Shown here one piece after another: positions 5,767 to 24,097 of a DNA stretch of 64,000 bases (position 1 is the stretch's first letter; every line of letters begins with the position of its first letter). The notes below the pieces were generated by a model. The model was given only the letters and a program-made list of their open reading frames with translations. It was not told the origin of the DNA and searched no databases. Position numbers and translations under genes: made by a program. Origin of the DNA: an uncultured Gammaproteobacteria bacterium (GTDB lineage: Bacteria; Patescibacteriota; Patescibacteriia; Patescibacteriales; Patescibacteriaceae); the NCBI GenBank assembly GCA_964611115.1, contig CAZSWO010000001.1, positions 20,309 through 84,308 on the forward strand. The letters are read 5' to 3'.

Positions 5767-7980
5767 TTATTTTTGATATAAAACTTTCAAAAAAGTATCG
5801 GTATCGAGCGGACCGCTGTAGGTCCAACCGCTTTCACTTAGTTCCAAATCATTCGGATAATTCCACATCGTTTTCCAACCTCCATTGATTGTTAATCGCG
5901 AGAATATGGAAGTATTGAGCGCACCCGGCTGTTTTTGTATGAGCAAGCTGTACTGCTCGCTCTTCTCTACATTAAAGTATGACTTAATCTTCTCCAAAAC
6001 GCCGACCGGACTTTCTTTCTCACCAATCTTAAAGGGCAAACGATAACGCAATTCAATAACGGCAGTTTCACCCGGATCAACCATCGACCAATTAGCGAAG
6101 ACGGTTTTACCATTCTCAGTATAGATCTTTGTTCCGCTGGCCGGATCGCTGATTGCCTCTCGCTCATTGGCTAACTGCGGCGAGAGTTCCCAGTTCGGAT
6201 CGGGCGATTCGAAATAGGCTTGATCAGGAGTGCGAAAACCGGAGGCTGATAACAAGCTGCTATTTTGAGGAACGTAGACACGCAACCAATTTACATTTCT
6301 AAAGCCAACGAATTGCTGGTTTTTCGGAGCGGTATGCTTGCGTTGTATCGTTAGTGTAACAGTAATCGAGCCGTCGGGCAAAACCTCCGCCTTATGATCA
6401 ATTACTTCTTCTATATAGCGATCGCTTTTCTGTCCTCCGATATTACTCGAAACGACCATTAAATAATCTTTGTCGTTTTTTTTAATTGAACCGTCCCAGC
6501 CAAAACCCTTCACTGAAGCCTGAAGCAGCGGATCATTAAAATACATAAGAATATGTTTCTCGCGCAAACTCTCTTCAAAAATTCCAATCAAAGCGAAGGC
6601 CTTTTCCGCCGACATATCTTTAGGGATATCTTCCATTAAGGTTGTCATCAAATCACCGATAATTTTTTTCGGTTCTTTGGTTACATCGGGCTTCTGCTCG
6701 GAAAAGGTTTGCGTAACTTCCCAAAAATTTTCAGAGTTTATAATGACACCATAATCCTTTGTCATATCAACCGGACCATGGATCTCCAATAAACGCTCGA
6801 TGACTGTAGGAGTAAAACTAATCACACCGTCAACAGTCGGTCCGTCACTCTTTTCATAAAACCACTGAAGGTTGCGAGCCGTCGTCGGCCAATCCGGCCA
6901 CCAATTCGCATCCCAAAAATGCCACAATGGATTAACCAACCACAGAGGCTCAGGCGCAACAACTCGACGATATAAGCCGGCCTCGGTATCGTAACTGCCG
7001 CCCTTAGGAACATTCAATTCTTTTATCTCTCCCTTGCTAACATCAACCGTAGCAAAACTTCCTACAAAGCCTCCGGAACCTCGACGTTCGGCATTATTCT
7101 GAAAGACGAGCAAATAACGTTTATCATGTTGCTTACCAAGAAAAACCGAGGCGCGTTTACTTAAATCTAAGGATTCTTCAAGGCTCGGCGCCAGCAGTTC
7201 TGCTTGGGAGCGGAGCTCCTTGAACTGAGCGCGGTAATTCTCGGGCAAATTATTTTCGTTGATTTTCTTTAACTCAATAACCAAAGCTCGAGCTTCTTCA
7301 CTGGCGGGAATCGCGTGCGCGGCGAAACGATCTAAGAAAGAAATAATATTTTGATTGGCAGAGGGCGTTATCGCCGCGCTCAGTTCGGCGCCGAGCCGGG
7401 CGGAAAGCTTACCGGCGGCAAGGATATGTCGTGACTCGGAAGCCAGCTTGGCATTATCATCCGGAATAATTCCAGCAAGATCGAGTAAGTTGCGATTGAT
7501 CGAGGCGAGATCGTTTTGCGCCTTAAGAAAATCATTACTCGCTTTTTCAAAAGCCGCTTCAGCGCCGCTATAATCTTCCTGCTCAATTAAATCTTTACCG
7601 GAAAAAATCCCAGCAAAGGCATTAGAGGTTGATTCGGTGACAGATTGACGAATCGGCGCCAGTGCCTGCCAACCCGAATACGCTAAAAACGGCAGAGCGA
7701 ATAAACTCATGACTAATAAAAAGTTCACTAATTTAAAAACTGGCGTATGTTTTTTTCCGGAAACTACTTCGAATTCTTTAACCTCCTCTTTTATTTCTTT
7801 TTTGAGACGCTTCGGAGCCTTGAATAATGTACGCAGACTGTATATAAACCTGCCGATAAAAATAATTAAGCGAATTACCAATAAATCACGCCAAAGCTTT
7901 TTCGGCCGAGTCGGCTTAGGACGCAAGTCGATAATTGAGTCCGGGTTAATCCTTTCGTTATTATGAGAGGCTCTGTTCAT
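5767..7980 (-). CDS. DUF4012 domain membrane protein
   Basis: YLLVFQNNAERRGSGGFVGS, FWDANWWPDWPT, VDGVISFTP, WLRVYVP; start likely MNRAS (7980), overlapping the GT stop. Confidence 0.85.
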   Translation of the reverse strand: MNRASHNNERINPDSIIDLRPKPTRPKKLWRDLLVIRLIIFIGRFIYSLRTLFKAPKRLKKEIKEEVKEFEVVSGKKHTPVFKLVNFLLVMSLFALPFLAYSGWQALAPIRQSVTESTSNAFAGIFSGKDLIEQEDYSGAEAAFEKASNDFLKAQNDLASINRNLLDLAGIIPDDNAKLASESRHILAAGKLSARLGAELSAAITPSANQNIISFLDRFAAHAIPASEEARALVIELKKINENNLPENYRAQFKELRSQAELLAPSLEESLDLSKRASVFLGKQHDKRYLLVFQNNAERRGSGGFVGSFATVDVSKGEIKELNVPKGGSYDTEAGLYRRVVAPEPLWLVNPLWHFWDANWWPDWPTTARNLQWFYEKSDGPTVDGVISFTPTVIERLLEIHGPVDMTKDYGVIINSENFWEVTQTFSEQKPDVTKEPKKIIGDLMTTLMEDIPKDMSAEKAFALIGIFEESLREKHILMYFNDPLLQASVKGFGWDGSIKKNDKDYLMVVSSNIGGQKSDRYIEEVIDHKAEVLPDGSITVTLTIQRKHTAPKNQQFVGFRNVNWLRVYVPQNSSLLSASGFRTPDQAYFESPDPNWELSPQLANEREAISDPASGTKIYTENGKTVFANWSMVDPGETAVIELRYRLPFKIGEKESPVGVLEKIKSYFNVEKSEQYSLLIQKQPGALNTSIFSRLTINGGWKTMWNYPNDLELSESGWTYSGPLDTDTFLKVLYQK

Positions 7981-9130: not shown

Positions 9131-10861
9131 TCATTTTCGAGCCCTTTCCGCAGGTTTAAGAGAATAGAGATTAAAACGGTCGGTAATTTCTTTAATCAGC
9201 TTAAGTTCGATTCCGGCTTCTTTAAGCGGACCATTGTTAAGATATTCTAAATCTTTTTCTTGGTAGGAAAAATTATAATAGTAGGTCGGCACTCGCGCGG
9301 CGATGTTCGCGTATTCAGCAATCATATTCTTATCATCGAACAAACCAATAACGACGTCGCGTTCGGGAAAGAATAATTTATCATGATAGCGCGTAATAAT
9401 AACCGCATCAGCTTCCGTCAATTCTAAAATTTGCTCCCATTCATATCGTGAAGCTGCTTGTTTCTCAATGGAAACTTTAATACCTTCTGCCGGATCAAGC
9501 CAAACGAATTGAACCGACAGGGTTGCTACAACCGCAATAGCCGCCAAACGGATACCCCAGACAGCAGATTTAAACTTAATCCAACAAGTCAGCTTGATTA
9601 AAGCTAAGCTCGCAAAGGGCAAAGCTCCAAAATAGACGGGTAACCAATATCGGGTGTAGGAATTGCCGATTGTTGTTGTACGATCCGGATTATCAAAAAA
9701 GGTCCAACTGCCATAATAAATGACAAGCACAACCGAAACAAAAACCCAGGCAAAGAAGAATAGCCAGCGACGCTTTGCGTATTCCTTAAAGAATAGAAGG
9801 AAAACGGCGACGCCCGCCGCAGTCGCGTAATACAACCACGGGAACATATCGCGCACATAGGCATTGAATAAACGATAACTTTGCTCAAGATTAAAACCGA
9901 AATGAAAGATTGTATCTTTAATGCTCAATACGATAGTTTTTAATTCGGCCAACTTCCCCGCTCCCGCCGTTGCAACCAAGCTAGAGCCATCTTGAGACAA
10001 GGAGAACAAAGAATCATTCAGCTCCGGATAGCCGCTTGAAAAAAATGAACCGTACAAAACACTGTTCCAATACAATATCGGCAAGAATGAAATAAAAACT
10101 CCATACAAAAAGAAAAATGGACGAACGATACCTATACGTTTACTATTAAAAATCCATAAGGCACAAACGAGGGGTCCGACCCAGATTAATTCCGAGGTAC
10201 GCGCCGTTAAAGCTGCTCCGATAAATAAACCGGAAAGCAAAGCATACAAGAATCCGAAACGATTACGGCGAAGGTAACTTTCTGACTCTTCTTTTTCGCT
10301 AATTCGGGTTGCAAAATACAAACCGCCTAATAGCATTGCTATAAAAATAACGTTATGAAACATGCTTCGCGCCGAGAAATATGTGTAAATCGGAAAAACT
10401 GACGCAAGCAGAGTCGAAATAATCGCATTAGCAGGGCTAAAGATTTTTTTTATCAAAAGAAAAAAGAAGACTAATCCGATAGCGCCAAAGAGAGGCGTGA
10501 GATAAGGCAATATTCCAATCCCGAAAACAGCAGCAATCTTACCGTAGAGAATCGGCATCCCTAAAAAACTGACAGGTTTAACGAGTCCCCAATCCGAACG
10601 GTAACTGCGCGGATGAATAATATCTTTTGCGAGCAAGTTATATTTTTCAAAATATGCTAGTTCACCGCTTTGAGCATACAGTTTCGCGGTCGCATAGTTG
10701 GCGGTTTCATCAGGCGACAGCCATTTAACAAAATCCTTGTCCTGACTTATATAATTAAAACTTGAGGCAAATAGAAAAAACCCGATTGATAACGGGATGA
10801 TAATGAGCCATTGCCAATGAACTCCGAGCCACGTTTTAAAGCTATTCTTAACTTCTTCCAT
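9131..10861 (-). CDS. GT-C-fold polytopic glycosyltransferase (GT39/PMT/ArnT-like)
   Basis: About 12 hydrophobic segments, SPDE motif in the first loop, RY(W)LP motif, soluble C-terminal domain. Confidence 0.65.
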   Translation of the reverse strand: MEEVKNSFKTWLGVHWQWLIIIPLSIGFFLFASSFNYISQDKDFVKWLSPDETANYATAKLYAQSGELAYFEKYNLLAKDIIHPRSYRSDWGLVKPVSFLGMPILYGKIAAVFGIGILPYLTPLFGAIGLVFFFLLIKKIFSPANAIISTLLASVFPIYTYFSARSMFHNVIFIAMLLGGLYFATRISEKEESESYLRRNRFGFLYALLSGLFIGAALTARTSELIWVGPLVCALWIFNSKRIGIVRPFFFLYGVFISFLPILYWNSVLYGSFFSSGYPELNDSLFSLSQDGSSLVATAGAGKLAELKTIVLSIKDTIFHFGFNLEQSYRLFNAYVRDMFPWLYYATAAGVAVFLLFFKEYAKRRWLFFFAWVFVSVVLVIYYGSWTFFDNPDRTTTIGNSYTRYWLPVYFGALPFASLALIKLTCWIKFKSAVWGIRLAAIAVVATLSVQFVWLDPAEGIKVSIEKQAASRYEWEQILELTEADAVIITRYHDKLFFPERDVVIGLFDDKNMIAEYANIAARVPTYYYNFSYQEKDLEYLNNGPLKEAGIELKLIKEITDRFNLYSLKPAERARK

Positions 10862-10943: not shown

Positions 10944-11444
10944 TTAATACTTTTTGGTATATGGCCAAAAGTCGGTCATATTTTCACGCCTCCAATCGAT
11001 CGCCGCGACAACCTCCTTAAGATCTTCATAAATTTCAGGATATTTATTTATAACTTTTTCTTCTTTGAAGTCCAGATTGGCTGCTGTTCCATCATTGTTA
11101 TATACATACACTCTCATATAAATCTCCGGTTCGCCGTCTTTCCATTCCTCCGGTGGTGCTGGTCGAAGGAAATGAAAAGCACAACTACGAATTTTTGATT
11201 CAATCTCCCGCCACGCATCAGACTCATCGCGAGAATTGATAAATTCAGGGTCGTAAATTATTAGATAGGTCCCCAATTTATCAATATCAAGAATGCACTT
11301 TGAATTTTTATAAATATCTTCAAAAGTAAAAATTTGGGAGGAATCAATCCCCAGCTTCATATTTAAAGCTTGTTCGACTTTCCCGCAAAAATATTCAGAG
11401 TTTACTGATATAATAAAAACCTTGTTGAAATCTATTCTATTCAC
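10944..11444 (-). CDS. Hypothetical protein (ORFan, possibly receiver-like alpha/beta fold)
   Basis: GTG start with AAGGAG SD, own promoter and terminator; AT-rich. Confidence 0.75.
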   Translation of the reverse strand: MNRIDFNKVFIISVNSEYFCGKVEQALNMKLGIDSSQIFTFEDIYKNSKCILDIDKLGTYLIIYDPEFINSRDESDAWREIESKIRSCAFHFLRPAPPEEWKDGEPEIYMRVYVYNNDGTAANLDFKEEKVINKYPEIYEDLKEVVAAIDWRRENMTDFWPYTKKY

Positions 11445-11488: not shown

Positions 11489-11517
11489 TTTATACAATAT
11501 TATTTTGAAAAAGTCAA
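11489..11517 (-). promoter_or_regulatory. Sigma70-type promoter
   Basis: TTGACT-17-TATAAA. Confidence 0.7.
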
Positions 11518-11537
11518 TAATCTGCTATTATGAACCT

Positions 11538-13445
11538 ATGTCTCTTACTATACATACGCTCCGCCATTCATTTTTCGTCTTACTAAGCACTGTTCCGGCC
11601 GCCTTGGCCCTTTGCGGCAGTTTAGTATATTTCAGCTATGGTTTAAATAAAAGCGGCGCTTTTAGCGCCCTGCTTTTAAGCGTGCTTGTAGTTTGCTTTA
11701 TTTTTAAAAATAATCAGGCCTCAACCGACAATGAAGTTCGCTCAATTAAAGATATCGACAAGAAAGAATGGCTTCTTTTTGCTTTGTATCTTGCGGCCTG
11801 GCTGCTTGCCTTCTATTTTCTATACAGCGGACGTTCATATCGTTCGATCGTCAGTCCTTGGCAAGTCGTCTCATCATTCTATTTCGCCGCTTACGCTTTC
11901 GGTACTGCCTGCATATTTTTACTCGGGCGTCGCTCATCGCGCTTAATTGCACCGGCACTTATATTACATTGCTTCTTACTCTTTGGAACCGCGCTGATCG
12001 TTTACGTAATTGGCTACGGCTTTGATCCCTTCATTCACGAAGCTGCCGTTCAAGCAATCCAAAAGCTAGGTCAAATTATACCATTAACACCTTACTATCT
12101 CGGACAGTATAGCATTGTAATTATCACTAACGCCGTAAGCGGAATTGACACCGCCCTTATCGCCAAAGCGCTGGTTCCTATCTACGCCGCTATTCTTCTG
12201 CCACTCTTACTTTTCCGCTGGCTCAAATCTCATCACGCCAAGGAAAAAAATTGGGCGCTCGCCGCTGTCGCACTTTTGATTTTACCGGCTATGATATTCA
12301 TCGTAACTACTCCGCAAAATCTAGCCTATCTGTTTTTATTAATTGTTCTCTTCCTTCCTTCAGCAATTCCAACGGCTCAAGAAAAACGAATTACACTACT
12401 GGCGGCTTTGGCGGCGCTCGTTACCCAACCGATTGCCGGCATTCCGGCCTTGGCAATTGTCGCGGGCGATTATATCAATGCAACAAAGTTCAAACAAAAA
12501 CTGTATCCGATTCTAATCGCCTTGCTCGCTATCGCCTTACCGCTCGCCTTATTTGTCTTTAATGTATTAGGCAAGGGCGATATAACATTAGACTGGCCGA
12601 ATTTTAATTTTTTGCTGAATTATCTGCCTACTAATCCTAACCAATCAAGTTGGTGGCTTAACTTTATCTATTTGTTCCATGGTCTTTGGGGTTTTATATT
12701 AGTGGCCCTAAGCATCATCGGCGGATTTATTGCTTTTAAAAAGCATAATTCTGAATTAGTCGGTCGCTTTGCCTGGCCGGCGCTCGCCTTATTTGTTTCA
12801 GCCCTGATCGCAACAACCGTAAACTTTCATTATTTAATCGAATACGAGCGTTCGGATTATCCGGAACGTATAATGATTACCGCTTTGATTGTCGCTCTGC
12901 CGTTGATGGTTGTCGCCCTGCGATCATTGGCGGCTCGCCTTGAGTCAGTTTCAAAAACAACTTTTGCACTATGGCTCTCGCTCATCGTCGCCGCTTCAAC
13001 CGCAACTCTCTATCTTTCCTACCCGCGCTATGACGCTTATTATAATAGCCACAGTTACGCAACTTCGAAGGCCGATATCTTAGCTGTACGCTGGATTGAA
13101 GCGGACGCGAACAACAAACCTTACATCGTCTTAGCAAATCAGCAGGTCAGCGCCGCGGCCTTACGCGAGCATGGCTTTAAAACCTATTATAAGAATTCAA
13201 TTTTCTATTACCCGATTCCAACCGGATCGCCGATGTATCAACACTATTTAGCGATGGTTGAAAAACCCGATTTACAACAAATCAACGCCGCAATGGATTT
13301 AGCCGGCGTTGATAGAGCGTATCTAGTTCTAAACTCTTATTGGTGGCAATATAACAAACTCGTCGCTCAAATAGCGACGATAGCGGACTCATCCGAAAAC
13401 ATTGGCGATGGCCAACTAATGGTTTTCACATTCTCTAAAAAGTAA
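11538..13445 (+). CDS. Polytopic membrane protein, GT-C/STT3-like architecture
   Basis: About 13-15 TM segments; GFDPFIH in an early loop; C-terminal soluble domain starting AVRWIE; start likely MSLTIH (11538). Confidence 0.55.
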   Translation: MSLTIHTLRHSFFVLLSTVPAALALCGSLVYFSYGLNKSGAFSALLLSVLVVCFIFKNNQASTDNEVRSIKDIDKKEWLLFALYLAAWLLAFYFLYSGRSYRSIVSPWQVVSSFYFAAYAFGTACIFLLGRRSSRLIAPALILHCFLLFGTALIVYVIGYGFDPFIHEAAVQAIQKLGQIIPLTPYYLGQYSIVIITNAVSGIDTALIAKALVPIYAAILLPLLLFRWLKSHHAKEKNWALAAVALLILPAMIFIVTTPQNLAYLFLLIVLFLPSAIPTAQEKRITLLAALAALVTQPIAGIPALAIVAGDYINATKFKQKLYPILIALLAIALPLALFVFNVLGKGDITLDWPNFNFLLNYLPTNPNQSSWWLNFIYLFHGLWGFILVALSIIGGFIAFKKHNSELVGRFAWPALALFVSALIATTVNFHYLIEYERSDYPERIMITALIVALPLMVVALRSLAARLESVSKTTFALWLSLIVAASTATLYLSYPRYDAYYNSHSYATSKADILAVRWIEADANNKPYIVLANQQVSAAALREHGFKTYYKNSIFYYPIPTGSPMYQHYLAMVEKPDLQQINAAMDLAGVDRAYLVLNSYWWQYNKLVAQIATIADSSENIGDGQLMVFTFSKK

Positions 13446-14523
13446 CTCCCAGCGCCGTTCCAATTTTTGTCAGATATTCTTCGTTACCTAATACGCGCAA
13501 ACGAGCTCTTCCTTCTTCTGATATTTGTATCAATTCTGACTGATGCAAACAGGCCCATTTCAGTTTTTCTCCGAGCTGTTCGGAATTTGGTTCAAATAAA
13601 AGCGACTCTTCGTTAATCAACTCTCTAGTGCCGCCTGTATTACTGCCGATCACCGGTACCTTCGCTAAGGCAGCTTCGATCCCAACCGTCGGAAGATTTT
13701 CATAACAGGTAGAAGGAATAACAAGGCAATCAGCCTGAGCTAGTTGTTGATAAGGATTCTCGTAGGACCCGGTAAAGAAAATACGCTTATCGCTATTCTT
13801 ACGCGCTAATTTTTCCGCAATAGTTCCCGAACCTGCAATAATAAGTCGGGCTGGCAGATCCTGAAACTGAGAAAATGTACGCACTAACAGCGGCACGCCC
13901 TTATGCTCTTCAATCTGACCCAGATACAAAAAGGTGAATATTTCATTTAACTTTTTTTCTAAGGGCTCAGTCGCTTCGACCGGATTATGTACAACTAGAT
14001 AGTTATTGCCTTCGGCAAAACCAAAACTTATATAGAGCGAAGCCAGCCACTGCGATGGGAAAATGATCAAAGCCTGCGGTGAAAATAATTGTCGAACTAT
14101 CATTCGATACACTTGAGCGGTAAAAGACTCAAGTTTTTTTTCTTGTCCGTACATTAACAATCCCGAAGGGTGCAAGTATTGAATGTCATGGAAGGTATGA
14201 ACAACGCCTTTAGTACCAAGAGCACGCAGCGCTAATAATCCAAAACCGGTTAAATTATGCGCCCAGACAAGATCAAAATTTCCAGCCTTAATCTCCTCCT
14301 TCAATCGTATATAACTACTGATATTAACAATACTAAAGACATGATGCAGAAGACGTCGCCACTTCGGCAAGGCCGCCAAGCGCTTATAGGCAAGTGTTCG
14401 TTCAATAATTGTTATTGAGTGCCCGCGTTTTGTAAGATAATCCGTCAGATCCCTAATACTGCGTTCGGCGCCGCCGCGAACTTCATCGGGGTTATAGACA
14501 TTATTTATAAAACAAATCTTCAT
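13435..14523 (-). CDS. Glycosyltransferase family 4
   Basis: GGAERS, YLGQIEEHKGV, PSTCYENLPTVGIEA. Confidence 0.93.
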   Translation of the reverse strand: MKICFINNVYNPDEVRGGAERSIRDLTDYLTKRGHSITIIERTLAYKRLAALPKWRRLLHHVFSIVNISSYIRLKEEIKAGNFDLVWAHNLTGFGLLALRALGTKGVVHTFHDIQYLHPSGLLMYGQEKKLESFTAQVYRMIVRQLFSPQALIIFPSQWLASLYISFGFAEGNNYLVVHNPVEATEPLEKKLNEIFTFLYLGQIEEHKGVPLLVRTFSQFQDLPARLIIAGSGTIAEKLARKNSDKRIFFTGSYENPYQQLAQADCLVIPSTCYENLPTVGIEAALAKVPVIGSNTGGTRELINEESLLFEPNSEQLGEKLKWACLHQSELIQISEEGRARLRVLGNEEYLTKIGTALGVTF

Positions 14524-15662
14524 TATTGTTTCTTAGGCGTATATAAAATTCTCAAATAAGCAGCCTCAAGTCGCTCACCGACCTTATCCCAACTATAGCG
14601 TTCATCGATCCAGCGTCGCCCCGCCTCCCCCATTTTTTGTGCTTCCTCGGGATTGTCAATCATGAAAGCTATCTTTTCGGCCAACTGTTCAACATCATCG
14701 GCTTTAATTAAAAAGCCATGTTCCTTATTGTGAAAAACGTTGCGGACGCCGGGCAAATTTGAAGCGATTACCGGCGTCGCCGATGCGAGCGCTTCAAGCA
14801 AGACTAATCCGAATGCTTCGCTCTTATCGGTTGAAGCTAAGACTGAAACGCGAGCTTTTTGATACCAGGCCGCCAAATCATCATCCGACGCATTAGAATC
14901 AATTATAAAATTTTCACTTAAATTATTTTTAGAGGCCAGTTCTTTGTATTCAGTCTCGAGATCGCCTCGACCTATCAATACGAGTTTTGCCTGCGGACGA
15001 TCAACGGCAACACGAGCGAAGGCTTCAATTAATTGCTTTACACCTTTAAAATAATGCTGACGGTCGAGCGCTCCAACAAATAAGACAATCGGATCGCGTT
15101 GGGTCGCGCCGGGATGAAAACGTTCGGCATCAACGCCGAAGGGAACTTCGATAAACTTATCTTTATGATTAATATAGTAATCGCATAACTGAGAATGCGC
15201 GACATAATCAAGCGAGGCGCAGGTAATCTGCGAAGCAAGACGGACAATGACGGGCAAAAAGAAAAAACTATAAAACCAAAAAATGAAACCCTTAATTCCT
15301 TGGCTGACGGTATCCATATGATAATGAATAACTAACTTACCTTGGAAAATTATTTTTGCCAAAGCAACGACGTCGGCCGTTCCGTAAAAAGGATAATGAA
15401 GATGTACAATATCAAAATTGCGAAGTTTAAAAAAAAGCTGGGGTAATACCGCCGCGTTACCAATAGAGAATAAGGGCTTCAAACGGACAACGGTGGCATT
15501 TTCACCGATTGTTTCGCTGCTCGTATCAGTATCGCGATATGCCGGAGTGAATACAACGCTCGTATGGCCGCAGGCACCAATTTGGCGAGCCATATGATAC
15601 ACACTGTTACCCATGCCGTTTTTATACGGCGGAAATGTACAGATGACGTGAGCAACTTTCAT
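14523..15662 (-). CDS. Glycosyltransferase family 4
   Basis: FVGALDRQHYFKGV, SEAFGLVLLEALAS, YSWDKV. Confidence 0.95.
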   Translation of the reverse strand: MKVAHVICTFPPYKNGMGNSVYHMARQIGACGHTSVVFTPAYRDTDTSSETIGENATVVRLKPLFSIGNAAVLPQLFFKLRNFDIVHLHYPFYGTADVVALAKIIFQGKLVIHYHMDTVSQGIKGFIFWFYSFFFLPVIVRLASQITCASLDYVAHSQLCDYYINHKDKFIEVPFGVDAERFHPGATQRDPIVLFVGALDRQHYFKGVKQLIEAFARVAVDRPQAKLVLIGRGDLETEYKELASKNNLSENFIIDSNASDDDLAAWYQKARVSVLASTDKSEAFGLVLLEALASATPVIASNLPGVRNVFHNKEHGFLIKADDVEQLAEKIAFMIDNPEEAQKMGEAGRRWIDERYSWDKVGERLEAAYLRILYTPKKQ

Positions 15663-15664
15663 AT

Positions 15665-16003
15665 CTAATCTTTTTTCTCTCGAGCCGACGATAAAGCGGC
15701 GATACGGGTCAATTCCGTAATTTCTTTTTCCATAGTCGCAATCTTTAGTCGCAAGCGGAATATCACATAAAAAATCACAGCCACAGCAACATAGAGCAGT
15801 AATTGGATACCTGTGCTTGAGAATCCGAGCCGAGCGGCTAATTCATCGATTGAACGAATATACAGCAAAAGTAATCCGGCGACGCCCCAGAACGCCAACC
15901 AAAAAATAAATTGGCTTTTCGGAATCTGATCCTTATAAAATTGCCAACCCAAGCGTAGTAGGAATATAAGTATAACGGCCAAACCGATTAATTCTTGTAG
16001 CAT
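15665..16003 (-). CDS. DUF2304 family small membrane protein
   Basis: Three TM helices then KIATMEKEITELTRIAAL; lies next to a GT2, as is usual for this family. Confidence 0.8.
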   Translation of the reverse strand: MLQELIGLAVILIFLLRLGWQFYKDQIPKSQFIFWLAFWGVAGLLLLYIRSIDELAARLGFSSTGIQLLLYVAVAVIFYVIFRLRLKIATMEKEITELTRIAALSSAREKKD

Positions 16004-16007
16004 ATGG

Positions 16008-16670
16008 TTAGTTGTTCATTTTAGCGATAAACATATCGCGCAGTATTTTAAATCCGCCGCTTAGGCGCTGGCCGAACTCGGGGTACAATACCGTAATCGG
16101 AACTTCAACAATAGTTCGTCCGCTTCGATGTGCCGCTACTAAAATTTCTGAGCAGTGCGCCATTCTATCCTGCTCCCAATTTAAATCATACGCCGCTGCT
16201 CTGGTGAATGCCCGAAAGCCACTTTGCGGATCACTCATCTCTATCTTAAAAAAGACACGATTTATAAAATGAGCTAAAGGCATTATAAAATTCTTCTTGA
16301 ACGTTGGCATTTTAGTCGTATCATCTAGAAAGCGAGAGCCAAAAACTATTTCGGCTTGGCCGGAAATAATAGGCTCAATAACCTTTGTAATATCTTCGGA
16401 TCTAAATTGTCCGTCAGCGTCAAAGTGAATAATAATATCGGCTCCCCTTTCCAGGGCGTACTGCGTTCCGGTTTTTAAGGCCGCACCCTGACCGCGATTA
16501 ATCGGGTGACGCAAAAAATCTACGTTTAGACCCCTGAGAGCTTCTTCAGTATTATCAGTCGATCCATCGTCAACCACAACAACCCAGTCAACTTTAGTTA
16601 GAACCTGTTTAATAACGTCAACCAAGGTATGGACGCTATTGAGAGTTGGAATGACGCATGCAACTTTCAT
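16008..16670 (-). CDS. GT2 glycosyltransferase, DPM1/polyprenol-phosphate-sugar synthase-like
   Basis: VVVDDGSTD, NRGQGAALKTG, FDADGQ, DPQSGFRAF; start MKVACVIP (16670). Confidence 0.92.
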   Translation of the reverse strand: MKVACVIPTLNSVHTLVDVIKQVLTKVDWVVVVDDGSTDNTEEALRGLNVDFLRHPINRGQGAALKTGTQYALERGADIIIHFDADGQFRSEDITKVIEPIISGQAEIVFGSRFLDDTTKMPTFKKNFIMPLAHFINRVFFKIEMSDPQSGFRAFTRAAAYDLNWEQDRMAHCSEILVAAHRSGRTIVEVPITVLYPEFGQRLSGGFKILRDMFIAKMNN

Positions 16671-16671
16671 G

Positions 16672-17691
16672 TTATGCGCCGTAACCGATTCCTTTAATGC
16701 CTTTGTTGGCTCGCAAATCTGCAATCGTTTTTTCAAGTCCCGCTTCAAGACTGACGAGCGGCATCCAACCGAGTAAGTCGCGCGCCTTAGTCGTATCCGG
16801 AAGTTTCAATGGCGTCATGAACAATATCGGTTCTGCGTAAACGACTTTTGATTTAGAGCCGAGCATTTTAATTATCGTATTCGCCAATTCGGTAACATTA
16901 ACATCTTGATCGGAGCCAATATTAATCGGTCCGGACAAATCCGATTGCATGAATTTAATAATTGCATCGAGACAGTCAGAAATATAACAAAAGGAGGAAG
17001 AGAAACCGGCATCTCCGTAAATTTCTAAATCCTTATTATCAAGTGCGTTGCTGATAAAGTCAGGTAACATATGTCCCTGATCAAGGGGCATGCGCGGTCC
17101 GTAGGCTCTGAATAAACGAATTATTTTTGCGTCAATATTATGAACGTCTTTGTATGTCTTAACCATACTCTCGGCAAAACGCTTGCCTTCATCGTATGAA
17201 CAACGATCGGAAAGCATATCAACCGTACCGACGTTTTCTTCGCTCACTAACCTATTCTGTGAATCGCGTGAGCCGTAGACAACCGATGATGAAAACTGCA
17301 TAAACTTCGATTGGTACTTAACGGCAATATCAAGAGCGTTCTTCACTGCGTAGGAGTTAGCGAGCAAGTTAGCGATGCGATTTTTTTCAAAGTGAATCGG
17401 CGCAGTCGGACAAGCCATGTTATATATTTCCTGAATGCCCTGAAACTCGATTCTAAAGCTGAGAAGTTCGGGAAAACTCTCAAGATCAATCGCCTCACTC
17501 ATGTCATGTTTAATAAAGTGGAAATCGGGATGCTGCAACAAATGATCAATATTTTTTTCCTCACCCGAAGAAAAATTATCGATACAGATAACTTTGGCGG
17601 ATTTTATCAGCTCATCACACAAGTGCGAACCGAGGAAACCGGCACCGCCGATTACCAGAACGTTTTTCTTATCAAAAATTGCTCGTTTCAT
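16672..17691 (-). CDS. NAD-dependent epimerase/dehydratase, UDP-glucuronate decarboxylase (UXS)-like
   Basis: GGAGFLGSHL, NMACPTAP, SSSVVYG, YDEGKR, YGPRM. Confidence 0.88.
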   Translation of the reverse strand: MKRAIFDKKNVLVIGGAGFLGSHLCDELIKSAKVICIDNFSSGEEKNIDHLLQHPDFHFIKHDMSEAIDLESFPELLSFRIEFQGIQEIYNMACPTAPIHFEKNRIANLLANSYAVKNALDIAVKYQSKFMQFSSSVVYGSRDSQNRLVSEENVGTVDMLSDRCSYDEGKRFAESMVKTYKDVHNIDAKIIRLFRAYGPRMPLDQGHMLPDFISNALDNKDLEIYGDAGFSSSFCYISDCLDAIIKFMQSDLSGPINIGSDQDVNVTELANTIIKMLGSKSKVVYAEPILFMTPLKLPDTTKARDLLGWMPLVSLEAGLEKTIADLRANKGIKGIGYGA

Positions 17692-17696: not shown

Positions 17697-20600
17697 TTAG
17701 TTATTAGTTAAAAAGACGGTTGCCGCGAGTCCATGATTGATAGACGACTCAAAGGCATAGAATGAAAAGACAAGGCGACCTCGATAATCAAAGATTCTAA
17801 CGTGAGGCGCTCCGCCACTCTCCGGTACAGTAATAATATCGGTAAATCCGTCTCTATTCAAATCAGCGCTTAAAACCTTAACATTACCGCTAAAAGTCGC
17901 TGAATAGGACTGCCATTGAAAGCGGCGTCCCCCGCGGAAGTCATAAGCTCCAACCAAACCCGAACCGCTCATCCGGCTAATTAAGAGCTCGGCCTGTCGT
18001 CGGCGCGGATTAGCATCTAAGTCACCGCTAGCGAGCTGCAAACCGCTCGCATCATAACGATTCCCGACTATAAAGTCATTAAGCTTGCGTCCGTCACGGC
18101 TAAAAATCTTAACCTGCGGAACACCGCCGCGGCCGGGAGCGGTGATAATTTCCCTGCCGCCTTCATCGCGCACATCACCGACGGCAATCGAAACTCCGCC
18201 TTTAAAGCTCGCCGGATAGGCAAGGAATGAACGAATGAATTTGCCTTCTCTTGAGAAAATTTTAACCAGAGGTTCAAAGCCGGCATTAGGAGCGGTAATA
18301 ATTTCTTTTTTTCCATCACCGTCTAAATCAGCGACGACAACCGTTGCTCCTCCCTTGTAAGCATAAGGATATGCCAGAAAATTAAAGAGCATATCGCCGT
18401 CTTCATTAAATATTTTAATATTGGATTCAAGACCTTTCTTCGGCGCAGTTATTATTTCATCATTACCGTCATTGTTCAAATCGCCCGAGGCCAATGAAAT
18501 TCCTCCAGTATATGTTTCCGGATAGGCTAGAAATTCTTTTTCTTTATTGCCAACATTATCCATCACTGTTACGAGGGCGGGCGCTGCTGAAGCCGGAGCA
18601 AAGGCAAATCGAGAACGCTGGGATTTAAGCTGCGTACTCGCTTCTAAAATAGCCTGCGCCATATTAACGCGGCCGCTGCCAAGCTGATTTATATAACTCG
18701 GATTAAGATCATTAAGATTATCCGCCGTGCGTTTCATAATATCGATCGCCTGCTCCGGAGGCATGCTCGGATTAGTACCTTGAATCAAAGCGAGTGTTCC
18801 GCTGATAAGCGGAACGGCCATCGATGTTCCCGACCAATAGCCGTCATAATACTGATTGAAAAATCTTCCTTCGGTTGATTTATCAGGTGCGTACACGGTT
18901 GTTGTATAAAAACTTACGCCCGGTGCCGCAATATCAATGCAATTACTTCCAAAGCCGGAAAAGTTTGCTTTTTGATCGATGCCGTCGGTCGCTGCGACGC
19001 CAACCGCCAATTTCTTTCCGTCGCTATCTCGATAGCAGGCCGGATAAATCGGACGTTCATTTAAATTAATTCCCTGACCGATGGCTTGTTCATTACCGGC
19101 CGGAGCGACAACAATAACGCCGGCGCGACGAGCGCGACGCAAGGCGTCTTCCAATCCGCGACTATAACCAAAACCGACAAAACTCAAATTAATGATATTG
19201 GCTCCTTTTGAAATCGCATAGTCAATTGATTTAATAACGGTTGCAATATCGCCGTTGCCCTTATCATCAAGCGCTTTAATCGCCATAATTTTAGAGTTCC
19301 AGCTAACTCCGGCAACACCTTGGTTATTGTTTCCCGCCGCCGCCGCAATTCCGGCAATAACCGTCCCGTGAATAACGCCGCCTTCGCTGAAGCCCGGTTT
19401 GAATTTAGGCGATGGATCAGCAAAGCCGTTAACAAAATCCCAACCGTAGACATCGTCGATCAGTCCGTTCTTATCGTCATCTCGATTGTTATTGGCAATT
19501 TCAGCAGGATTAACCCACATATTCGGTTTAATATCAGGGTGATAGACCTGCACACCGGAATCAATAACAGCAATCACAATTGTTGGCGCTGAGTGATTTA
19601 TATTCCAGGCAGTCGGAGCTTTAATCCGCTCTAGATACCATTGGTTTGAAAGCAGCGTGTCGGAAGGAGTAATCGCCGCAGTGACGATATAGTTTAACTC
19701 GGCATATTCAACCGAACTTAGTTTTGAATAATATGTTACTAATTCTTGATTGCTCTTGTTCTGTGGAACTCTAACAGTACGAGCCAGTTGTTCATTTTTA
19801 AATTTAACGATGATAGTTTTAGTATCAGCTTCGGGTTCATTAAATGCCTTACCTGGCGCGAAAGGCACAAGCATTGAAGAGATTACCAAGACAATGACCA
19901 AGGTTTTAATAGTCGTTAAAATTCCCTCAGCACATTTTTTCCAGCTGAAGTTCTTAACTCGTTCACTTCCCTCTTTAATTAAGCGCGCTCGCACTGCCTT
20001 GTCCTCAATCACTGAAATAATAGCCTGCGCCATATCGTCGGGACTGCTAGGATCAAACAAAACAGCGGCGTCGCCGGCGATTTCCGGAATCGACGCAGCA
20101 CGCGAAGCCGCAATCGGAGTTTTAGTCGCCATTGCCTGCAGCAAAGGAATTCCGAAACCTTCGTAATTAGAGGGAAAGACAAAGGCGTCGGCCTTGGCAA
20201 AAATATAGGGCAAATCTTTCTCCGCAACCCAGCCGGTCGTACAGACAATTGTTTCGAGACCGAAGCCATGAATTGAATATTTGATATCATCAAAGCCGTA
20301 GCTGGCATCGCCTACTAAATAAAGTTTATGCTGGAAATCCGGACGACGATTTTTTAGATAGTGAAAGGCTTCTATCAAAGTTGCAATATTTTTCTTTTTC
20401 TCAAGGCGTCCGACGTAAAAAACGTAGGGCTGGCGAATGCCGTAGGAAGCGAGAATCTCCTCTCCCTTCGGATCCTCTGTAAGATCTTTATATAATTCAT
20501 CATTATAACCGTTATGAATTACATCAATTTTAGCGGCGTCGGCATCCTTGTAGGTTTCAAGCAATTCCTTTTTGGTAAATTCAGAAATTGAAATAACGCG

Positions 20601-21107
20601 GCGGGCATGCTTTAGCGCATAATGGGTTGACCAATCAAGATAATCAAAAGTATTGGCACCATATTTTCCAAAGGTAAGCGTTCGAACAAGGGCGTTAACA
20701 AAACTGTGCCGAGCCGATGTTTGCGCACCGATGTTAGCTCGTTCGTATAATTTCGCATCGCTTCTAAAACCGATATCATGAATTGTGACAACGGACTTTC
20801 TCGGATGAATAATCGGCAAGGCATGCGCCGGAACAAATAACACATCAGGCGCGTTAAACAGCATCTCCAACGACAAGCGTCCCTGTGTCCAAAAGAATTT
20901 CCAGGGCCAGGCTAACACCTTACTTGTAAAATTTCGATGTTTTGCAACTAAAGACGCCAACTCGCCGCTCAAAGGCGTATCGGTGTATAAAATATATTCA
21001 TGTTCGCTATCCAGCTCAGCCAAGGCGAAAATCACATAATAGGAATACCATTCGGTTCCGCTTTTATGAGCGCGGTTGGCGCGGCTGGCGTCAATACCAA
21101 TCCTCAT
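17697..21107 (-). CDS. Fusion: GT4 glycosyltransferase + TM/signal segment + S8 subtilase + FG-GAP-like repeats
   Basis: GT4 (IGIDAS, FPSNYEGFGIPLLQAM), hydrophobic LVIVLVISSMLVPFAPGKA, triad VIDSG/HGT/GTSMA, 5-6 GD.D.DG..EIIT repeats; start MRIGID (21107). Confidence 0.9.
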   Translation of the reverse strand: MRIGIDASRANRAHKSGTEWYSYYVIFALAELDSEHEYILYTDTPLSGELASLVAKHRNFTSKVLAWPWKFFWTQGRLSLEMLFNAPDVLFVPAHALPIIHPRKSVVTIHDIGFRSDAKLYERANIGAQTSARHSFVNALVRTLTFGKYGANTFDYLDWSTHYALKHARRVISISEFTKKELLETYKDADAAKIDVIHNGYNDELYKDLTEDPKGEEILASYGIRQPYVFYVGRLEKKKNIATLIEAFHYLKNRRPDFQHKLYLVGDASYGFDDIKYSIHGFGLETIVCTTGWVAEKDLPYIFAKADAFVFPSNYEGFGIPLLQAMATKTPIAASRAASIPEIAGDAAVLFDPSSPDDMAQAIISVIEDKAVRARLIKEGSERVKNFSWKKCAEGILTTIKTLVIVLVISSMLVPFAPGKAFNEPEADTKTIIVKFKNEQLARTVRVPQNKSNQELVTYYSKLSSVEYAELNYIVTAAITPSDTLLSNQWYLERIKAPTAWNINHSAPTIVIAVIDSGVQVYHPDIKPNMWVNPAEIANNNRDDDKNGLIDDVYGWDFVNGFADPSPKFKPGFSEGGVIHGTVIAGIAAAAGNNNQGVAGVSWNSKIMAIKALDDKGNGDIATVIKSIDYAISKGANIINLSFVGFGYSRGLEDALRRARRAGVIVVAPAGNEQAIGQGINLNERPIYPACYRDSDGKKLAVGVAATDGIDQKANFSGFGSNCIDIAAPGVSFYTTTVYAPDKSTEGRFFNQYYDGYWSGTSMAVPLISGTLALIQGTNPSMPPEQAIDIMKRTADNLNDLNPSYINQLGSGRVNMAQAILEASTQLKSQRSRFAFAPASAAPALVTVMDNVGNKEKEFLAYPETYTGGISLASGDLNNDGNDEIITAPKKGLESNIKIFNEDGDMLFNFLAYPYAYKGGATVVVADLDGDGKKEIITAPNAGFEPLVKIFSREGKFIRSFLAYPASFKGGVSIAVGDVRDEGGREIITAPGRGGVPQVKIFSRDGRKLNDFIVGNRYDASGLQLASGDLDANPRRRQAELLISRMSGSGLVGAYDFRGGRRFQWQSYSATFSGNVKVLSADLNRDGFTDIITVPESGGAPHVRIFDYRGRLVFSFYAFESSINHGLAATVFLTNN

Positions 21108-21108
21108 A

Positions 21109-22116
21109 CTATTTGGTTGCAAAAATACTCCGTTTGTAGGAATCAAGATTTTCTAAGGCGATACCGGTTCCTTTGGCGACACAGAGAAGTGCATCATCGG
21201 CAACGTAGGCCGGAACGTCGGTCGTTCGATATAAAAGTTGATCAAGATTGCGCAAGAGCGATGAACCGCCCGATAAGACCATTCCCTTATCCATAATATC
21301 CGAAGCCAGTTCCGGCGGCGTATCGCGCAAGACATTCTTAGCCGCCGTTATAATAGCTTCTAACTCATTCTGAATCGCTTCTGTTACATCGTCGGATGAA
21401 ACAATAATATTTCTTGGTAAGCCGGTAATAATATCGCGACCGCGGATTTCCATTGTTAACTTATCTTCGAGATACAAAGCACTACCGATTCCAATCTTTA
21501 CTTCTTCGGCGGTACGCTCACCGATGACAAGATTATATTTGCGGCGGATGTAATCAATAATTGAACTGTCAAATTTGTTTCCGCCGACGCGAACGGAGGT
21601 CGAGGTAACAACACCGCCCAACGAGATAACGGCCATTTCCGCGGTTCCACCGCCGATGTCGACAATCATATGTCCCGAGGGAGAACCGATCGGGATATCA
21701 GCGCCAATCGCGGCGGCAATCGGTTCTTTAATAATGTAGGCGGCTTTAGCGCCGGCAGCAATTGTTGCGTCGATAACAGCGCGACGTTCCGTCGAAGTAA
21801 TTCCGGCGGGAACCGCGACCATAACTTCCGGACGAAAGAGACGAACGCCGGAGAGAGCTTTATTAATAAAGTAACGAAGCATCGCTTCGGTTGTATGATA
21901 ATCGGCGATAACGCCGTCTTTGAGCGGCTTGATTGCAACAATGTTTCCCGGAGTTCGACCAAGCATGTCCTTAGCTTCGTTGCCGACCGCTAGAATTTTT
22001 TTATCGGACATCGAGATAGCAACCACCGACGGCTCATTAATAACAATCCCGCGGCGCGGGACGTGAACGAGGGTATAGGTTGTACCGAGATCGATGCCGA
22101 TCCGTTTTATAAACAT
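21109..22116 (-). CDS. mreB: Rod shape-determining actin homolog MreB
   Basis: IGIDLGT, NEPSVVA, PLKDGVIAD, VDIGGGT, LSGGSSLL. Confidence 0.97.
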   Translation of the reverse strand: MFIKRIGIDLGTTYTLVHVPRRGIVINEPSVVAISMSDKKILAVGNEAKDMLGRTPGNIVAIKPLKDGVIADYHTTEAMLRYFINKALSGVRLFRPEVMVAVPAGITSTERRAVIDATIAAGAKAAYIIKEPIAAAIGADIPIGSPSGHMIVDIGGGTAEMAVISLGGVVTSTSVRVGGNKFDSSIIDYIRRKYNLVIGERTAEEVKIGIGSALYLEDKLTMEIRGRDIITGLPRNIIVSSDDVTEAIQNELEAIITAAKNVLRDTPPELASDIMDKGMVLSGGSSLLRNLDQLLYRTTDVPAYVADDALLCVAKGTGIALENLDSYKRSIFATK

Positions 22117-22118
22117 AG

Positions 22119-24029
22119 TTAAAATTCAATGAAAAAGCTGCGATCTATCTTTAAATCTCCGCTGGCGGTAAGCCGAGAGCTATCGGTTGCGGTTGAATAG
22201 AAATTCGCTGGACTATAGGATTTTATCTCATTTTTGAAGCCCAAGTCAACGGCCAAACGACTTAGCTGCTTTCCAGGCTGTTTTTGAATGGTTAAACGAT
22301 AATTCCTGTACTTTTGCATATTTGTCAGAATCTCAACCGGCAATTCATATTCGAACACAAGCTGTCCGATTTGTCCGGGCTCCACCGATAAAAATGCTGC
22401 AAAATAGGTTTTACCGAATTCTTCAGCGACCGTCACCTCGCCCTGAGAATGACCGCTGGCTCGTATTAAACGACTTCCGCCGGGAACATACACTCTCGTA
22501 TACGTTCGATAGCGAGTCGTCTTCCAATCAAAACCTCCGCCGTGTGAATAGCGCAGCGTTAAGGTTGCCATAAGCGTATCGCTTCCCTCTTCAACGTTGT
22601 ATTCAATCTGACGGTCCATAACAGCATCAGTTTTAAGCGCCGCCATGTTCGCATCAACAACCATTACATAGTCTCCCCAATCATGACGAATTGCACCGGA
22701 CCAACCCTGCTTAGTAATTAAATCTTGCAGCGCTGCATCATTGGAATAGAGCAAAACATTTTTGCGCGCGACGTTATCAGAAATAAGATTAATCATTTCC
22801 GGCCAGCGACCGAGAGGCAGATCCAATAAACGTTGTTTCATTTCTTTTGAGATGTCGCCGATAACTTCTTTGCGCTGCCAAGAAGGAATACCGAGACGGA
22901 CGTAATCTTTTTCAACTTTATACTGAAGCAGATCAACAAAATTTTGCGCCGTATAGGTCTCGCCTTGAATCGTAATCGGACCGGTCAGTTTCATTAAGTC
23001 AGTAATCAACTCCGGCGTAATCGCGATAACACCGTCAAAATCCGAAATCGGATCAGGCGTGGGCATCGCCGCATTTTCTAATTTATAAAAACGCAGCAAC
23101 TCACGCGCCGACGTCGGCCAATCCGGTGACCAGTTCGCATCGCGCATATACCATTTATCAACGCCAAGATATTGTTTAAGCGGAGCCGGCGGAGCAATCG
23201 AAATTTTATCTTTAACCGGCATATCGATGTGATAAATATCATGAGTTTCAAAGCGTTCGAAATCTCCGTCTTTAGTTTGAATAATTCCGTAGGTTCCAAT
23301 AAAGCCGCCGGTTGGTCGAAGTTCGTCGCTGTTTTGTAAAATCAAAAGATAGCGCGATGTATTCGGATAACCGAGCAAGGACGGCAGCAATCGAGTTAGG
23401 GGCGAAGCTTCTTCGATTGTGCGTTGTCCGACGCTGATCTTTTCTTTAAGTTCCTCAAGCCGCGCGCTTAAAGGACCGAACCATTTGAACGACCTTATTC
23501 CTTCGATGTCGCTCAAGCTGGCACTCAATTTTTCATTAACGGTTGTAAGCGACTCGTCAGCAGTATAAATTGTAGATAAAATCCGGCGTCGTTCATCAAT
23601 TGGCAGTTTAGAAAAAGTCATGCCGCCGTTAGCGGCAATAATATCGCCTAGACCGCTGCCGTAGTTCGTCGCCGCCTCCATTGCTTCGGCCAACGATTTT
23701 CCCGCAGAAACTAAATGTTCAGCGTCATTTTTATACGAGGCAAATATCTTGATATACGCAAAGGGTCCAATACGAAGACTATTAACTTCCTTAACCGCAA
23801 TTGAAAAAGAGGCAACGGCTTCATCAGCCGCTTTATTCGCAGAGCTAAAGTCGCCTGATTGAGCGAGGTGCAAAGAGCTTTCCAGCGAGGTTTTTCCGCT
23901 GTTTACGCTTGAATAAACGGTACTAACGTGCTTTAGGTTAAATCCAATCAACATTAAAACAACCGCTAAAACGGCGATGCCGGCGATAAATAATCCCCAC
24001 AAACATTTTGTAATAATTCGGATGGCCAT
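22119..24029 (-). CDS. DUF4012 domain membrane protein (second paralog)
   Basis: YLLILQNSDELRPTGGFIGT, MRDANWSPDWPT, FDGVIAITP, RTYTRVYVP; start MAIRII (24029). Confidence 0.87.
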   Translation of the reverse strand: MAIRIITKCLWGLFIAGIAVLAVVLMLIGFNLKHVSTVYSSVNSGKTSLESSLHLAQSGDFSSANKAADEAVASFSIAVKEVNSLRIGPFAYIKIFASYKNDAEHLVSAGKSLAEAMEAATNYGSGLGDIIAANGGMTFSKLPIDERRRILSTIYTADESLTTVNEKLSASLSDIEGIRSFKWFGPLSARLEELKEKISVGQRTIEEASPLTRLLPSLLGYPNTSRYLLILQNSDELRPTGGFIGTYGIIQTKDGDFERFETHDIYHIDMPVKDKISIAPPAPLKQYLGVDKWYMRDANWSPDWPTSARELLRFYKLENAAMPTPDPISDFDGVIAITPELITDLMKLTGPITIQGETYTAQNFVDLLQYKVEKDYVRLGIPSWQRKEVIGDISKEMKQRLLDLPLGRWPEMINLISDNVARKNVLLYSNDAALQDLITKQGWSGAIRHDWGDYVMVVDANMAALKTDAVMDRQIEYNVEEGSDTLMATLTLRYSHGGGFDWKTTRYRTYTRVYVPGGSRLIRASGHSQGEVTVAEEFGKTYFAAFLSVEPGQIGQLVFEYELPVEILTNMQKYRNYRLTIQKQPGKQLSRLAVDLGFKNEIKSYSPANFYSTATDSSRLTASGDLKIDRSFFIEF

Positions 24030-24097
24030 ATTGACAATTTCTCTTTTATTGTAGCATAATTGAGGCAAATCTAAAAAATCAAAGGGAGAAATCGTAC

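Follow-up and report, generated by a model that had tools for sequence, protein, structure and literature searches.

Type II (N-in/C-out) single-pass membrane proteins, such as PknB-type kinases, have either catalytic domains on both sides of the membrane or a large cytoplasmic N-terminal domain. In Bradyrhizobium, the precursor FbcH reportedly carries an internal c1 signal sequence, whose cleavage is said, in the work of Thony-Meyer et al. of 1989-1991, to yield two mature proteins. The cytochrome b/c1 fusion itself is known to exist in Bradyrhizobiaceae (PMC4986455). The KdpD protein of E. coli places a cytoplasmic N-terminal region of 400 residues before its first transmembrane (TM) segment and is inserted into the membrane by the signal recognition particle (SRP) (PMC2440551). 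In the eukaryotic type II proteases corin and matriptase-2, positive charge at the membrane interface can block cleavage by signal peptidase (PMC11756421). Here, we describe a gene on a 64-kb stretch of contig CAZSWO010000001.1 (the window, meaning the whole stretch of DNA that was analysed) whose single open reading frame (ORF) joins a cytoplasmic-type GT4 glycosyltransferase (GT) to an exported-type S8 subtilase through the former signal peptide of the protease. The fusion is real and old, and it is restricted to a single small clade of Candidatus Falkowbacteria-like Patescibacteria, in which it is fixed. Through it, a former signal peptide has become an export signal or anchor within the chain, and it is a new form of known kinds of arrangement, namely gene fusion and the internal signal or polyprotein.

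FbcH is the closest mechanistic precedent known to us. In both cases, the products of neighbouring genes are fused and the signal of the downstream, exported partner becomes internal. However, the upstream partner in FbcH is a polytopic membrane protein of the same complex, and processing has been demonstrated there. In the GT4-S8 fusion, a soluble GT-B enzyme of the cytoplasm takes the upstream place, any functional link between it and the protease is putative, and we infer the cleavage. A literature search on bacterial internal signal peptide polyproteins and fbcH returned nothing directly usable beyond the existence of cytochrome b/c1 fusions. With PknB-type kinases and KdpD, the fusion shares a folded cytoplasmic N-terminal domain before the first hydrophobic segment that directs export. 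The helices of these proteins are permanent and about 20 residues long, whereas the segment of the fusion is a 15-18-residue signal-peptide remnant with a c-region. Corin and matriptase-2 are similar in that a protease ectodomain lies behind an N-terminal signal-anchor and flanking charges decide whether signal peptidase cuts, but they are proteins of the eukaryotic endoplasmic reticulum with an S1 fold, and they have a short cytoplasmic tail instead of an enzyme.

The fused protein runs in the order GT4 glycosyltransferase, single hydrophobic helix, subtilase propeptide, S8 protease, and FG-GAP repeats. The gene and its parts are listed below, with residues counted from the ATG at 21107 and with a slash marking a cleavage position, here and in the text.

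17697-21107 (-): whole fused gene, 1136 codons and the TAA stop at 17697-17699, starting at the ATG at 21107.
19911-21107 (-): GT4 (GT-B fold) glycosyltransferase domain, residues 1-399, placed by Pfam, AlphaFold2 (AF2), and solved relatives.
19869-19943 (-): one continuous predicted helix, residues 389-413 (394-418 in the AF2 model, P0001 numbering), in which the last GT-B helix (SWKKCAEGILTTIK) runs into the hydrophobic core with no linker.
19851-19904 (-): uncharged hydrophobic stretch TLVIVLVISSMLVPFAPG, residues 402-419, the putatively retained hydrophobic (h) region of the former protease signal peptide.
19842-19853 (-): predicted signal peptidase I site G-K-A/F, residues 419-421/422, cut between 19845 and 19844, from a scan with the -3/-1 rule.
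19608-19844 (-): putative subtilase N-terminal propeptide (I9 or fervidolysin-prodomain-like), residues about 422-500, which contains IIVKFKNE...VEYAELNYIV.
18696-19580 (-): Peptidase S8 catalytic domain, residues 510-804 (PF00082, 154.7 bits, cut-off 21.8).
17700-18590 (-): C-terminal FG-GAP repeat region, presumed to be a beta-propeller, residues about 840-1136.

The longest form of this ORF in the ORF listing of the minus strand spans 17697-21146 from the first TTG. The gene caller placed the start at the TTG at 21122, which gives the database copy P0001 of 1141 residues. For this reason, an exact-protein look-up with the 1136-residue product found no match. The ATG at 21107 lies one base past the mreB stop codon and is the conserved start, with orthologs opening MRIGIDAS or MIIGIDAS (M[RI]IGIDAS). 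Pfam places a complete GT4 at residues about 17-394, S8 at 510-804, and FG-GAP from about 876, and all of these matches exceed the curated cut-offs. The junction string FSWKKCAEGILTT-IKTLVIVLVISSMLVPFAPGKA-FNEP is found in frame at residues 387-425 (about 19833-19949). The initial annotation, made from the DNA letters and an ORF list, had described a single ORF in which a GT4 continues into an exported subtilase with an intact S8 triad and FG-GAP-like repeats, and the ORF, the Pfam matches, and the comparison with split orthologs bear this description out.

The match to the GT4 family extends over both Rossmann-like halves (PF00534, Glycos_transf_1, 116.4 bits, cut-off 26.4). Further GT4 profiles score 101.5 bits (PF13692, Glyco_trans_1_4) and 38.4 bits (PF13439, Glyco_transf_4, cut-off 28.5). 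The AF2 model was run with a 64-row alignment and has a mean predicted local distance difference test (pLDDT) score of 77; its numbering follows P0001, which is the ATG numbering plus 5. In this model, the GT4 domain consists of alternating beta/alpha elements with pLDDT mostly above 90. The nearest solved relatives are GlgM (6tvp, 2e-17) and MshA (3c4q), with modest scores. GT4 is nucleotide-sugar-dependent and therefore cytoplasmic. Its EX7E motif reads E...Q (YEGFGIPLLQAMA; residues about 320-332, about 20110-20150 (-) of the window), so that the first Glu is present and the second position is Gln. The Gln is seen in all inner-clade orthologs, both the fused ones and the split ones (L001, L006-L008, L086, and L087), and Glu is kept only in L009-L011. 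The Glu-to-Gln change is thus older than the fusion.

The S8 domain contains Asp516 (VIDSGV), His580 (HGTVIAG), and Ser762 (GTSMAVP), together with the oxyanion Asn672 (AGNE), and these columns are invariant in the ortholog alignment A2. Its best solved relative is deseasin MCP-01 (3vv3, 1e-39), and thermitase is also among the closest; these are ordinary secreted subtilases, and pLDDT in this part exceeds 90. Ahead of it lies the predicted propeptide. The Pfam score for this region is under the cut-off (PF22148, Fervidolysin_NPro-like, 17.1 bits at 433-472, cut-off 21). AF2 predicts a beta-beta-alpha-beta element at 436-476 (P0001 numbering) with pLDDT 77-96, and the motifs IIVK[FY]KNE and YAE.NYI are kept in all orthologs. 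The C-terminal repeats are recognized by PF13517 (FG-GAP_3, 47 bits, cut-off 26.9) and PF01839 (FG-GAP, 33.8 bits, cut-off 22.1); AF2 shows only strands here, at low confidence, and the fold is poorly modelled.

Membrane topology and the signal peptide were called by simple hydropathy and the -3/-1 rule. Residues 396-414 are the sole segment over the Kyte-Doolittle threshold of 1.6 for 19 residues (2.33; next best 1.41). The charges that flank this segment are +3/-1 towards GT4 and +2/-3 towards the protease. This is a positive-inside pattern, which favours N-in/C-out. The uncharged stretch here, TLVIVLVISSMLVPF, is typical of the h-region of a signal peptide, with a conserved Pro at the h/c boundary. 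The uncharged stretch measures 15-18 residues in the fused forms and 14-15 residues in the nearest split orthologs, and the boundary Pro is found in both alike (VPF, FPF, LPF; VPW, TPC, SPL, SPF). Each fused lineage has a site that obeys the -3/-1 rule 5-9 residues after the Pro, although the residues have diverged (GKA/F in the window, ANA/E in L002, and AQS/E in L005). Past the helix, AF2 gives a low-confidence stretch at 419-431 (P0001 numbering, pLDDT below 50), where the c-region is predicted. The uncharged stretch begins at residue 402 of 1136 and is therefore not an N-terminal signal peptide, and the Met and charged n-region of split orthologs (MKK.., MNKLKK..) are deleted in the fused form. 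The in-frame canonical start codons near it, TTG Leu403, TTG Leu407, ATG Met412, and GTG Val414, all lie within the hydrophobic stretch, in keeping with the earlier remark that the signal-like segment has no ATG of its own.

The relatives of this locus show what the two halves looked like before they were joined. A search with the S8 half as bait yielded 16 loci that have a GT4 ortholog directly upstream of the one of S8, and 9 of them are split. Identity in S8 is 66% for L086, 61% for L087, 58% for L001 and L006, 54% for L007, and 45-47% for L008-L011. The split loci thus encode the same two proteins (45-66% identity), and L001 also has the same locus order, DUF4012-MreB-GT4-S8-epimerase-GT2-DUF2304. 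L001, L086, and L087 share the same catalytic motifs, these being the only loci in which a narrow motif search found all of them. The split orthologs differ from the fusion in that they are two genes, with GT4 ending in ...IK[AS]L(A) or ...LFENI before its stop codon. In all nine, the S8 gene starts at an ATG of its own, and its product opens with a charged n-region and a conventional N-terminal signal peptide or anchor. GT4-S8 adjacency is kept in at least 12 species-level lineages. In L012-L014, which carry S8-FG-GAP proteins of 34-39% identity, no GT4 was seen in the upstream flank examined (about 1 kb in L013 and 4 kb in the other two), which suggests that the gene pair is restricted to an inner clade.

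The distance between the two genes varies among the split loci. In L001, the junction reads ...LFENI TAA TAG ATG AAA AAA (MKKLFLALLIVVFLSPLEMAAPVFA/MDEE), and S8, with the signal KKLFLALLIVVFLSPLEMAAPVFA, is in the frame of GT4. The junction of L087 reads ...SLIKAL TAA-KVA-MNKLKKIFIIFTISALLTPCFNINLVQA/STEAD. L086 has 2 nt between its stop and its ATG, which lie in different frames. L008-L011 have a spacer of 40-130 nt between GT4 and S8, and in the spacer of at least L008, L009, and L011 a TGTTATAAT box is found near or just 5' of the S8 start.

Neighbour-joining trees of the GT4 half, the S8 half, and the two concatenated all place the three fused lineages in one clade nested among the split forms. 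The split state is therefore ancestral, and the fusion occurred once. The fused TTIKTL aligns with the C-terminal tail of GT4 itself (AFIKSLA in L086 and SLIKAL in L087, each followed by the stop) and not with the old Met-Lys-Lys, which indicates that the n-region and the Met were deleted. By this alignment, about 10 codons were deleted, comprising the stop, the spacer, the Met, and the charged n-region, so that the h-region now directly follows the last GT-B helix. What is left of the signal peptide is its hydrophobic core, the Pro at the boundary, and a small -3/-1 site. Such an event took out more than a simple stop loss would. The comparison of split and fused loci, together with the trees, shows two ancestrally separate proteins in one ORF with the signal of the downstream partner internal, which is one mark of an FbcH-like polyprotein. 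As a separate matter, the ATT codon of Ile400 was considered as a mutated ATG start and rejected: the codon is ATA in L002, L003, and L004, and the Ile aligns with the IK[ST]L tail of split orthologs rather than with the old Met.

The initial annotation had allowed for an assembly error at the junction, and the evidence excludes this. The fusion is found in seven assemblies, from different projects, that fall into three species-level lineages: the window; L002 and L003; and L004, L005, L085, and L088. The second lineage is represented by P0002 (86% identity, 1138 residues), found in one ENA and one JGI assembly (L002 and L003). The third is 72-74% identical, and its member L005 is labelled Candidatus Falkowbacteria bacterium UBA2355 (Patescibacteria/Parcubacteria group). 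In addition, the junction was checked in Logan per-run contigs, which are independently built; the check is at the contig level, so rare variants could escape it. The contigs of three wastewater metagenome runs cover 19500-20300 with a word depth of 7-9 and contain no indel, joint, or stop. One of the three runs shows two substitutions only, 19822 G>A (Thr429Ile) and 19827 A>C (synonymous), just past the predicted cleavage site. These are strain-level variation and leave the reading frame unaffected.

In L004, a frameshift at 5760-6059 in the FG-GAP propeller splits the product into 1049 residues and a 91-residue ORF. L005 and L085 of the same lineage are intact at 1134 residues, and the frameshift is likely to be an assembly or strain-level error.

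Between the fused lineages, the proportion of synonymous differences (pS) is 0.56-0.90, which means saturation. For each of the three parts (GT4, S8 catalytic domain, and FG-GAP), the ratio of nonsynonymous to synonymous divergence (dN/dS) comes to about 0.04-0.10 where computable. Because synonymous sites are saturated and dN/dS is low, the fusion is old and not a recent stop loss, and both halves have been under strong purifying selection since. The distribution of the fusion is narrow. An exhaustive HMMER search of 1.84 billion representatives of 50%-identity clusters found only one, P0003, which stands for the fused clade, that matches both halves. The other top matches were stand-alone S8-FG-GAP proteins of about 650-770 residues, stand-alone GT4 proteins of about 400-428 residues, and larger multidomain S8 proteins, such as MltG fusions. 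In a word-indexed search of 5.8 billion proteins, PF00534 and PF00082 were combined only in P0001-P0003. The refuting case named in the initial annotation, a protease that is always separate in relatives, is only partly borne out: the distant relatives are split (L001, L006-L011, L086, and L087), and the two nearest lineages are fused.

From these comparisons, we propose, with a probability of roughly 0.7, that the old fusion makes a precursor whose internal signal remnant exports the protease half, and that signal peptidase and/or propeptide autoprocessing frees the protease while GT4 stays on the cytoplasmic side. In the ancestor, a cytoplasmic GT4 gene would have stood directly before a gene for a secreted pre-pro-subtilase with FG-GAP repeats, tightly adjacent and sometimes in the same frame with only stop codons between. 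In the fused protein, the GT4 domain would be made first, fold, and stay in the cytoplasm. The emerging hydrophobic segment of 15-18 residues would then engage SRP/SecYEG as an internal N-in/C-out signal, and the approximately 715 residues that follow would be translocated. As the precedent of KdpD indicates, SRP can insert a protein that has 400 cytoplasmic residues before its first membrane segment.

Cleavage by signal peptidase I after Gly-Lys-Ala421, which would free the pro-subtilase, is the likelier outcome in view of the short h-region, the Pro at its boundary, and the small residues at -3 and -1. The polyprotein cut by signal peptidase, one of the options raised by the initial annotation, is therefore the arrangement favoured here, with the cleavage itself predicted from these features. 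Autoprocessing of the propeptide is established for the subtilase family, and it would free the mature protease even without signal peptidase. Since the propeptide lies between the helix and the catalytic domain, the usual autoprocessing would release the mature enzyme, and this speaks against a bifunctional enzyme that stays tethered for good. No signal peptidase I gene was found in the window by a motif search, which is uninformative for a piece of this size.

Independent fusions of the same protease family support a continuing export function of the segment. P0073 (1044 residues) and P0177 (806 residues) are MltG/YceG-S8(-FG-GAP) fusions in which the protease is likewise C-terminal to a cell-envelope enzyme, here one of the peptidoglycan. 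They differ in that the partner is already extracytoplasmic behind its own N-terminal TM segment, and the junction lacks any hydrophobic segment (...EEHKINKTKYLNSKEGYQQGELLVKYKNQ). The protease thus lost its signal core where it had no need of one, as in the MltG fusions, and retained it behind a cytoplasmic partner.

A cut after the helix would leave the spent signal peptide on GT4, where it may serve as a C-terminal tail anchor and keep the enzyme at the inner face of the membrane. We offer more tentatively the suggestion that the spent signal peptide escapes degradation and permanently anchors, by its C-terminus, a GT4 that was once soluble or peripheral, so that one deletion would have produced both a tail-anchored GT and an obligate 1:1 protease at the same site. 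The fusion would enforce 1:1 synthesis and co-localisation of both products, and joint action of the two enzymes is not implied.

Some observations weigh against the proposal of an exported and processed precursor. The kept -3/-1 site is weak evidence for cleavage, since a compatible site is estimated to occur by chance in roughly half of such short stretches. Lys401 stands directly before the helix, and given the behaviour of corin with a charge at the interface, the helix could be an uncleaved anchor. In every fused lineage, moreover, an in-frame TTG stands no more than about 8 codons from where the h-region starts, and the protease might be initiated there separately. Finally, the persistence of the fusion shows tolerance and a continuing need for the protease, and not an advantage of the fusion, because after the loss of the Met a return to the split state needs a new stop and a new start together.

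The doubts about cleavage lead to a different reading, in which the helix is a permanent type II anchor and the product is an uncleaved bitopic, bifunctional enzyme with GT4 inside and the protease outside, linked and acting together. The initial annotation had raised this option as well, as an enzyme that would couple sugar transfer inside to proteolysis outside. Hydropathy, flank charges, and the AF2 helix fit this topology just as they fit that of a processed precursor, and Lys401 occupies the cytoplasmic interface, where charges of this kind block cleavage in corin and matriptase-2. Among the split orthologs, the deepest ones (L008, L010, and L011) have uncharged hydrophobic segments at the N-terminus of S8 that are longer than those of the fused forms, up to 21 residues in L010 and L011, and resemble anchors rather than cleaved signals. 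The adjacency of the two genes in at least 12 species-level lineages counts for this reading too. However, about 13-15 hydrophobic residues precede the conserved Pro, a length that resembles a signal peptide and would be small for a stable anchor. The small -3/-1 residues are kept in all three fused lineages, and the propeptide would allow the mature protease to be detached in any case. We therefore regard a permanently linked enzyme pair as unlikely.

According to another reading, the protease is translated separately from an internal non-ATG start near the helix, and the full-length fusion is a tolerated by-product. The candidate starts are TTG Leu403 (window and L002), a TTG four codons before Ile400 (L005), and ATT or ATA at Ile400. 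The tight packing of the genes in split relatives, with 0-3 codons or 2 nt between stop and start, would be in line with such initiation. The lack of a Shine-Dalgarno (SD) sequence is no argument against it, since an SD-like 4-mer, even a weak one, is present at only 7 of the 46 gene starts of the window; the SD argument, for or against internal initiation, was dropped. The nearby TTG codons lose their weight when it is considered that an 8-codon stretch holds ATG, GTG, or TTG by chance with P of about 0.26-0.36, which is not significant. The start position is not conserved either: the window and L002 have TTG at Leu403, L005 has TTA, and an internal ATT start, as the initial annotation had also considered, fails at the ATA of the other fused lineages. 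Initiation at Leu403 would yield a signal peptide that lacks the charged n-region, and scanning for promoters revealed no convincing promoter-like site on the minus strand directly upstream of the junction. As there is no stop codon, the fused protein would be made regardless. Separate translation is thus rather improbable. That the gene is an artefact or decaying, through mis-assembly, a sequencing indel, or a recent inactivating fusion, can be dismissed as very improbable: the propeller frameshift of L004 is all that speaks for it, and the agreement of seven assemblies, the clean per-run contigs, the intact L005 and L085, the low dN/dS in all parts at saturated synonymous divergence, and the intact catalytic residues speak against it.

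With the processed precursor as the preferred reading, the locus is of interest for research on protein translocation and on the envelope of Patescibacteria. It provides a natural pair of before (split) and after (fused) states, in which one small deletion would place a cleavable N-terminal signal peptide in the interior of a protein, to act there as an export signal or an anchor. It suggests that a bacterial cell tolerates a folded cytoplasmic enzyme of 400 residues ahead of a Sec signal over long evolutionary time. The fused protein also offers a ready means to study whether signal peptidase I of bacteria acts on the internal signals of native proteins. In general terms, the importance is modest, as the distribution is narrow, with three uncultured species-level lineages only, and the fusion may be selectively neutral.

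The genes around the fusion form one tightly packed unit with it, and gene order around GT4-S8 is the same in L001-L004.

21109-24068 (-): upstream part of the unit, with a DUF4012 protein (22119-24068) and MreB (21109-22116).
13435-17691 (-): downstream part of the unit, with an NAD-dependent sugar epimerase/dehydratase, GT2, DUF2304, GT4, and GT4.

The mreB neighbourhood and the independent MltG fusions suggest a place for the S8-FG-GAP family among cell-envelope functions and hint at a shared role in cell-envelope growth in Patescibacteria. If fusion marks function, the conserved GT4 adjacency, together with the mreB neighbourhood and the MltG fusions, would tie this protease family, which is widespread in Patescibacteria, to envelope glycan synthesis.

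Mycosins, the subtilases of type VII secretion, are anchored by a C-terminal TM segment. The best NCBIfam match of the S8 part is the mycosin family TIGR03921, at 133.8 bits, far under its cut-off of 278.75. A mycosin is likewise a membrane-associated subtilase, but it differs in its C-terminal TM anchor and its type VII secretion system context. As the score is this low and such a context is absent, assignment of the S8 part to the mycosins was rejected.

Within the downstream unit, the GT2 ORF as listed (from TTG 16748) overlaps the epimerase gene by 77 nt (16672-16748). Its true start is probably an internal ATG (MKVACVIPTLN...), as in orthologs of 220-226 residues. The GT cluster is flanked by ORFs at 9131-10861 (-), 10944-11444 (-), and 11505-13445 (+), of 576, 166, and 646 residues, which have no Pfam match at E<=0.001. 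The matching neighbourhood of L001 gives a weak PMT_2/STT3-like (GT-C) match.

Some gene starts in the window (for example, 9118, 34968, 35080, and 60328) lie just 3' of a TATAAT-like hexamer, and other starts abut the previous gene. The scarcity of SD sequences, these hexamers or abutting genes, and the TGTTATAAT boxes by the S8 starts of the deep split loci suggest leaderless or coupled translation.

Genomes labelled as uncultured Gammaproteobacteria bacterium also carry the S8-FG-GAP gene (L006, L007, L011, L012, and L013), with an adjacent GT4 in L006, L007, and L011. L006 is near-identical at the junction to L001, which has the full DUF4012-MreB-GT4-S8 order. The Gammaproteobacteria labels of these metagenome-assembled genomes are probably wrong.

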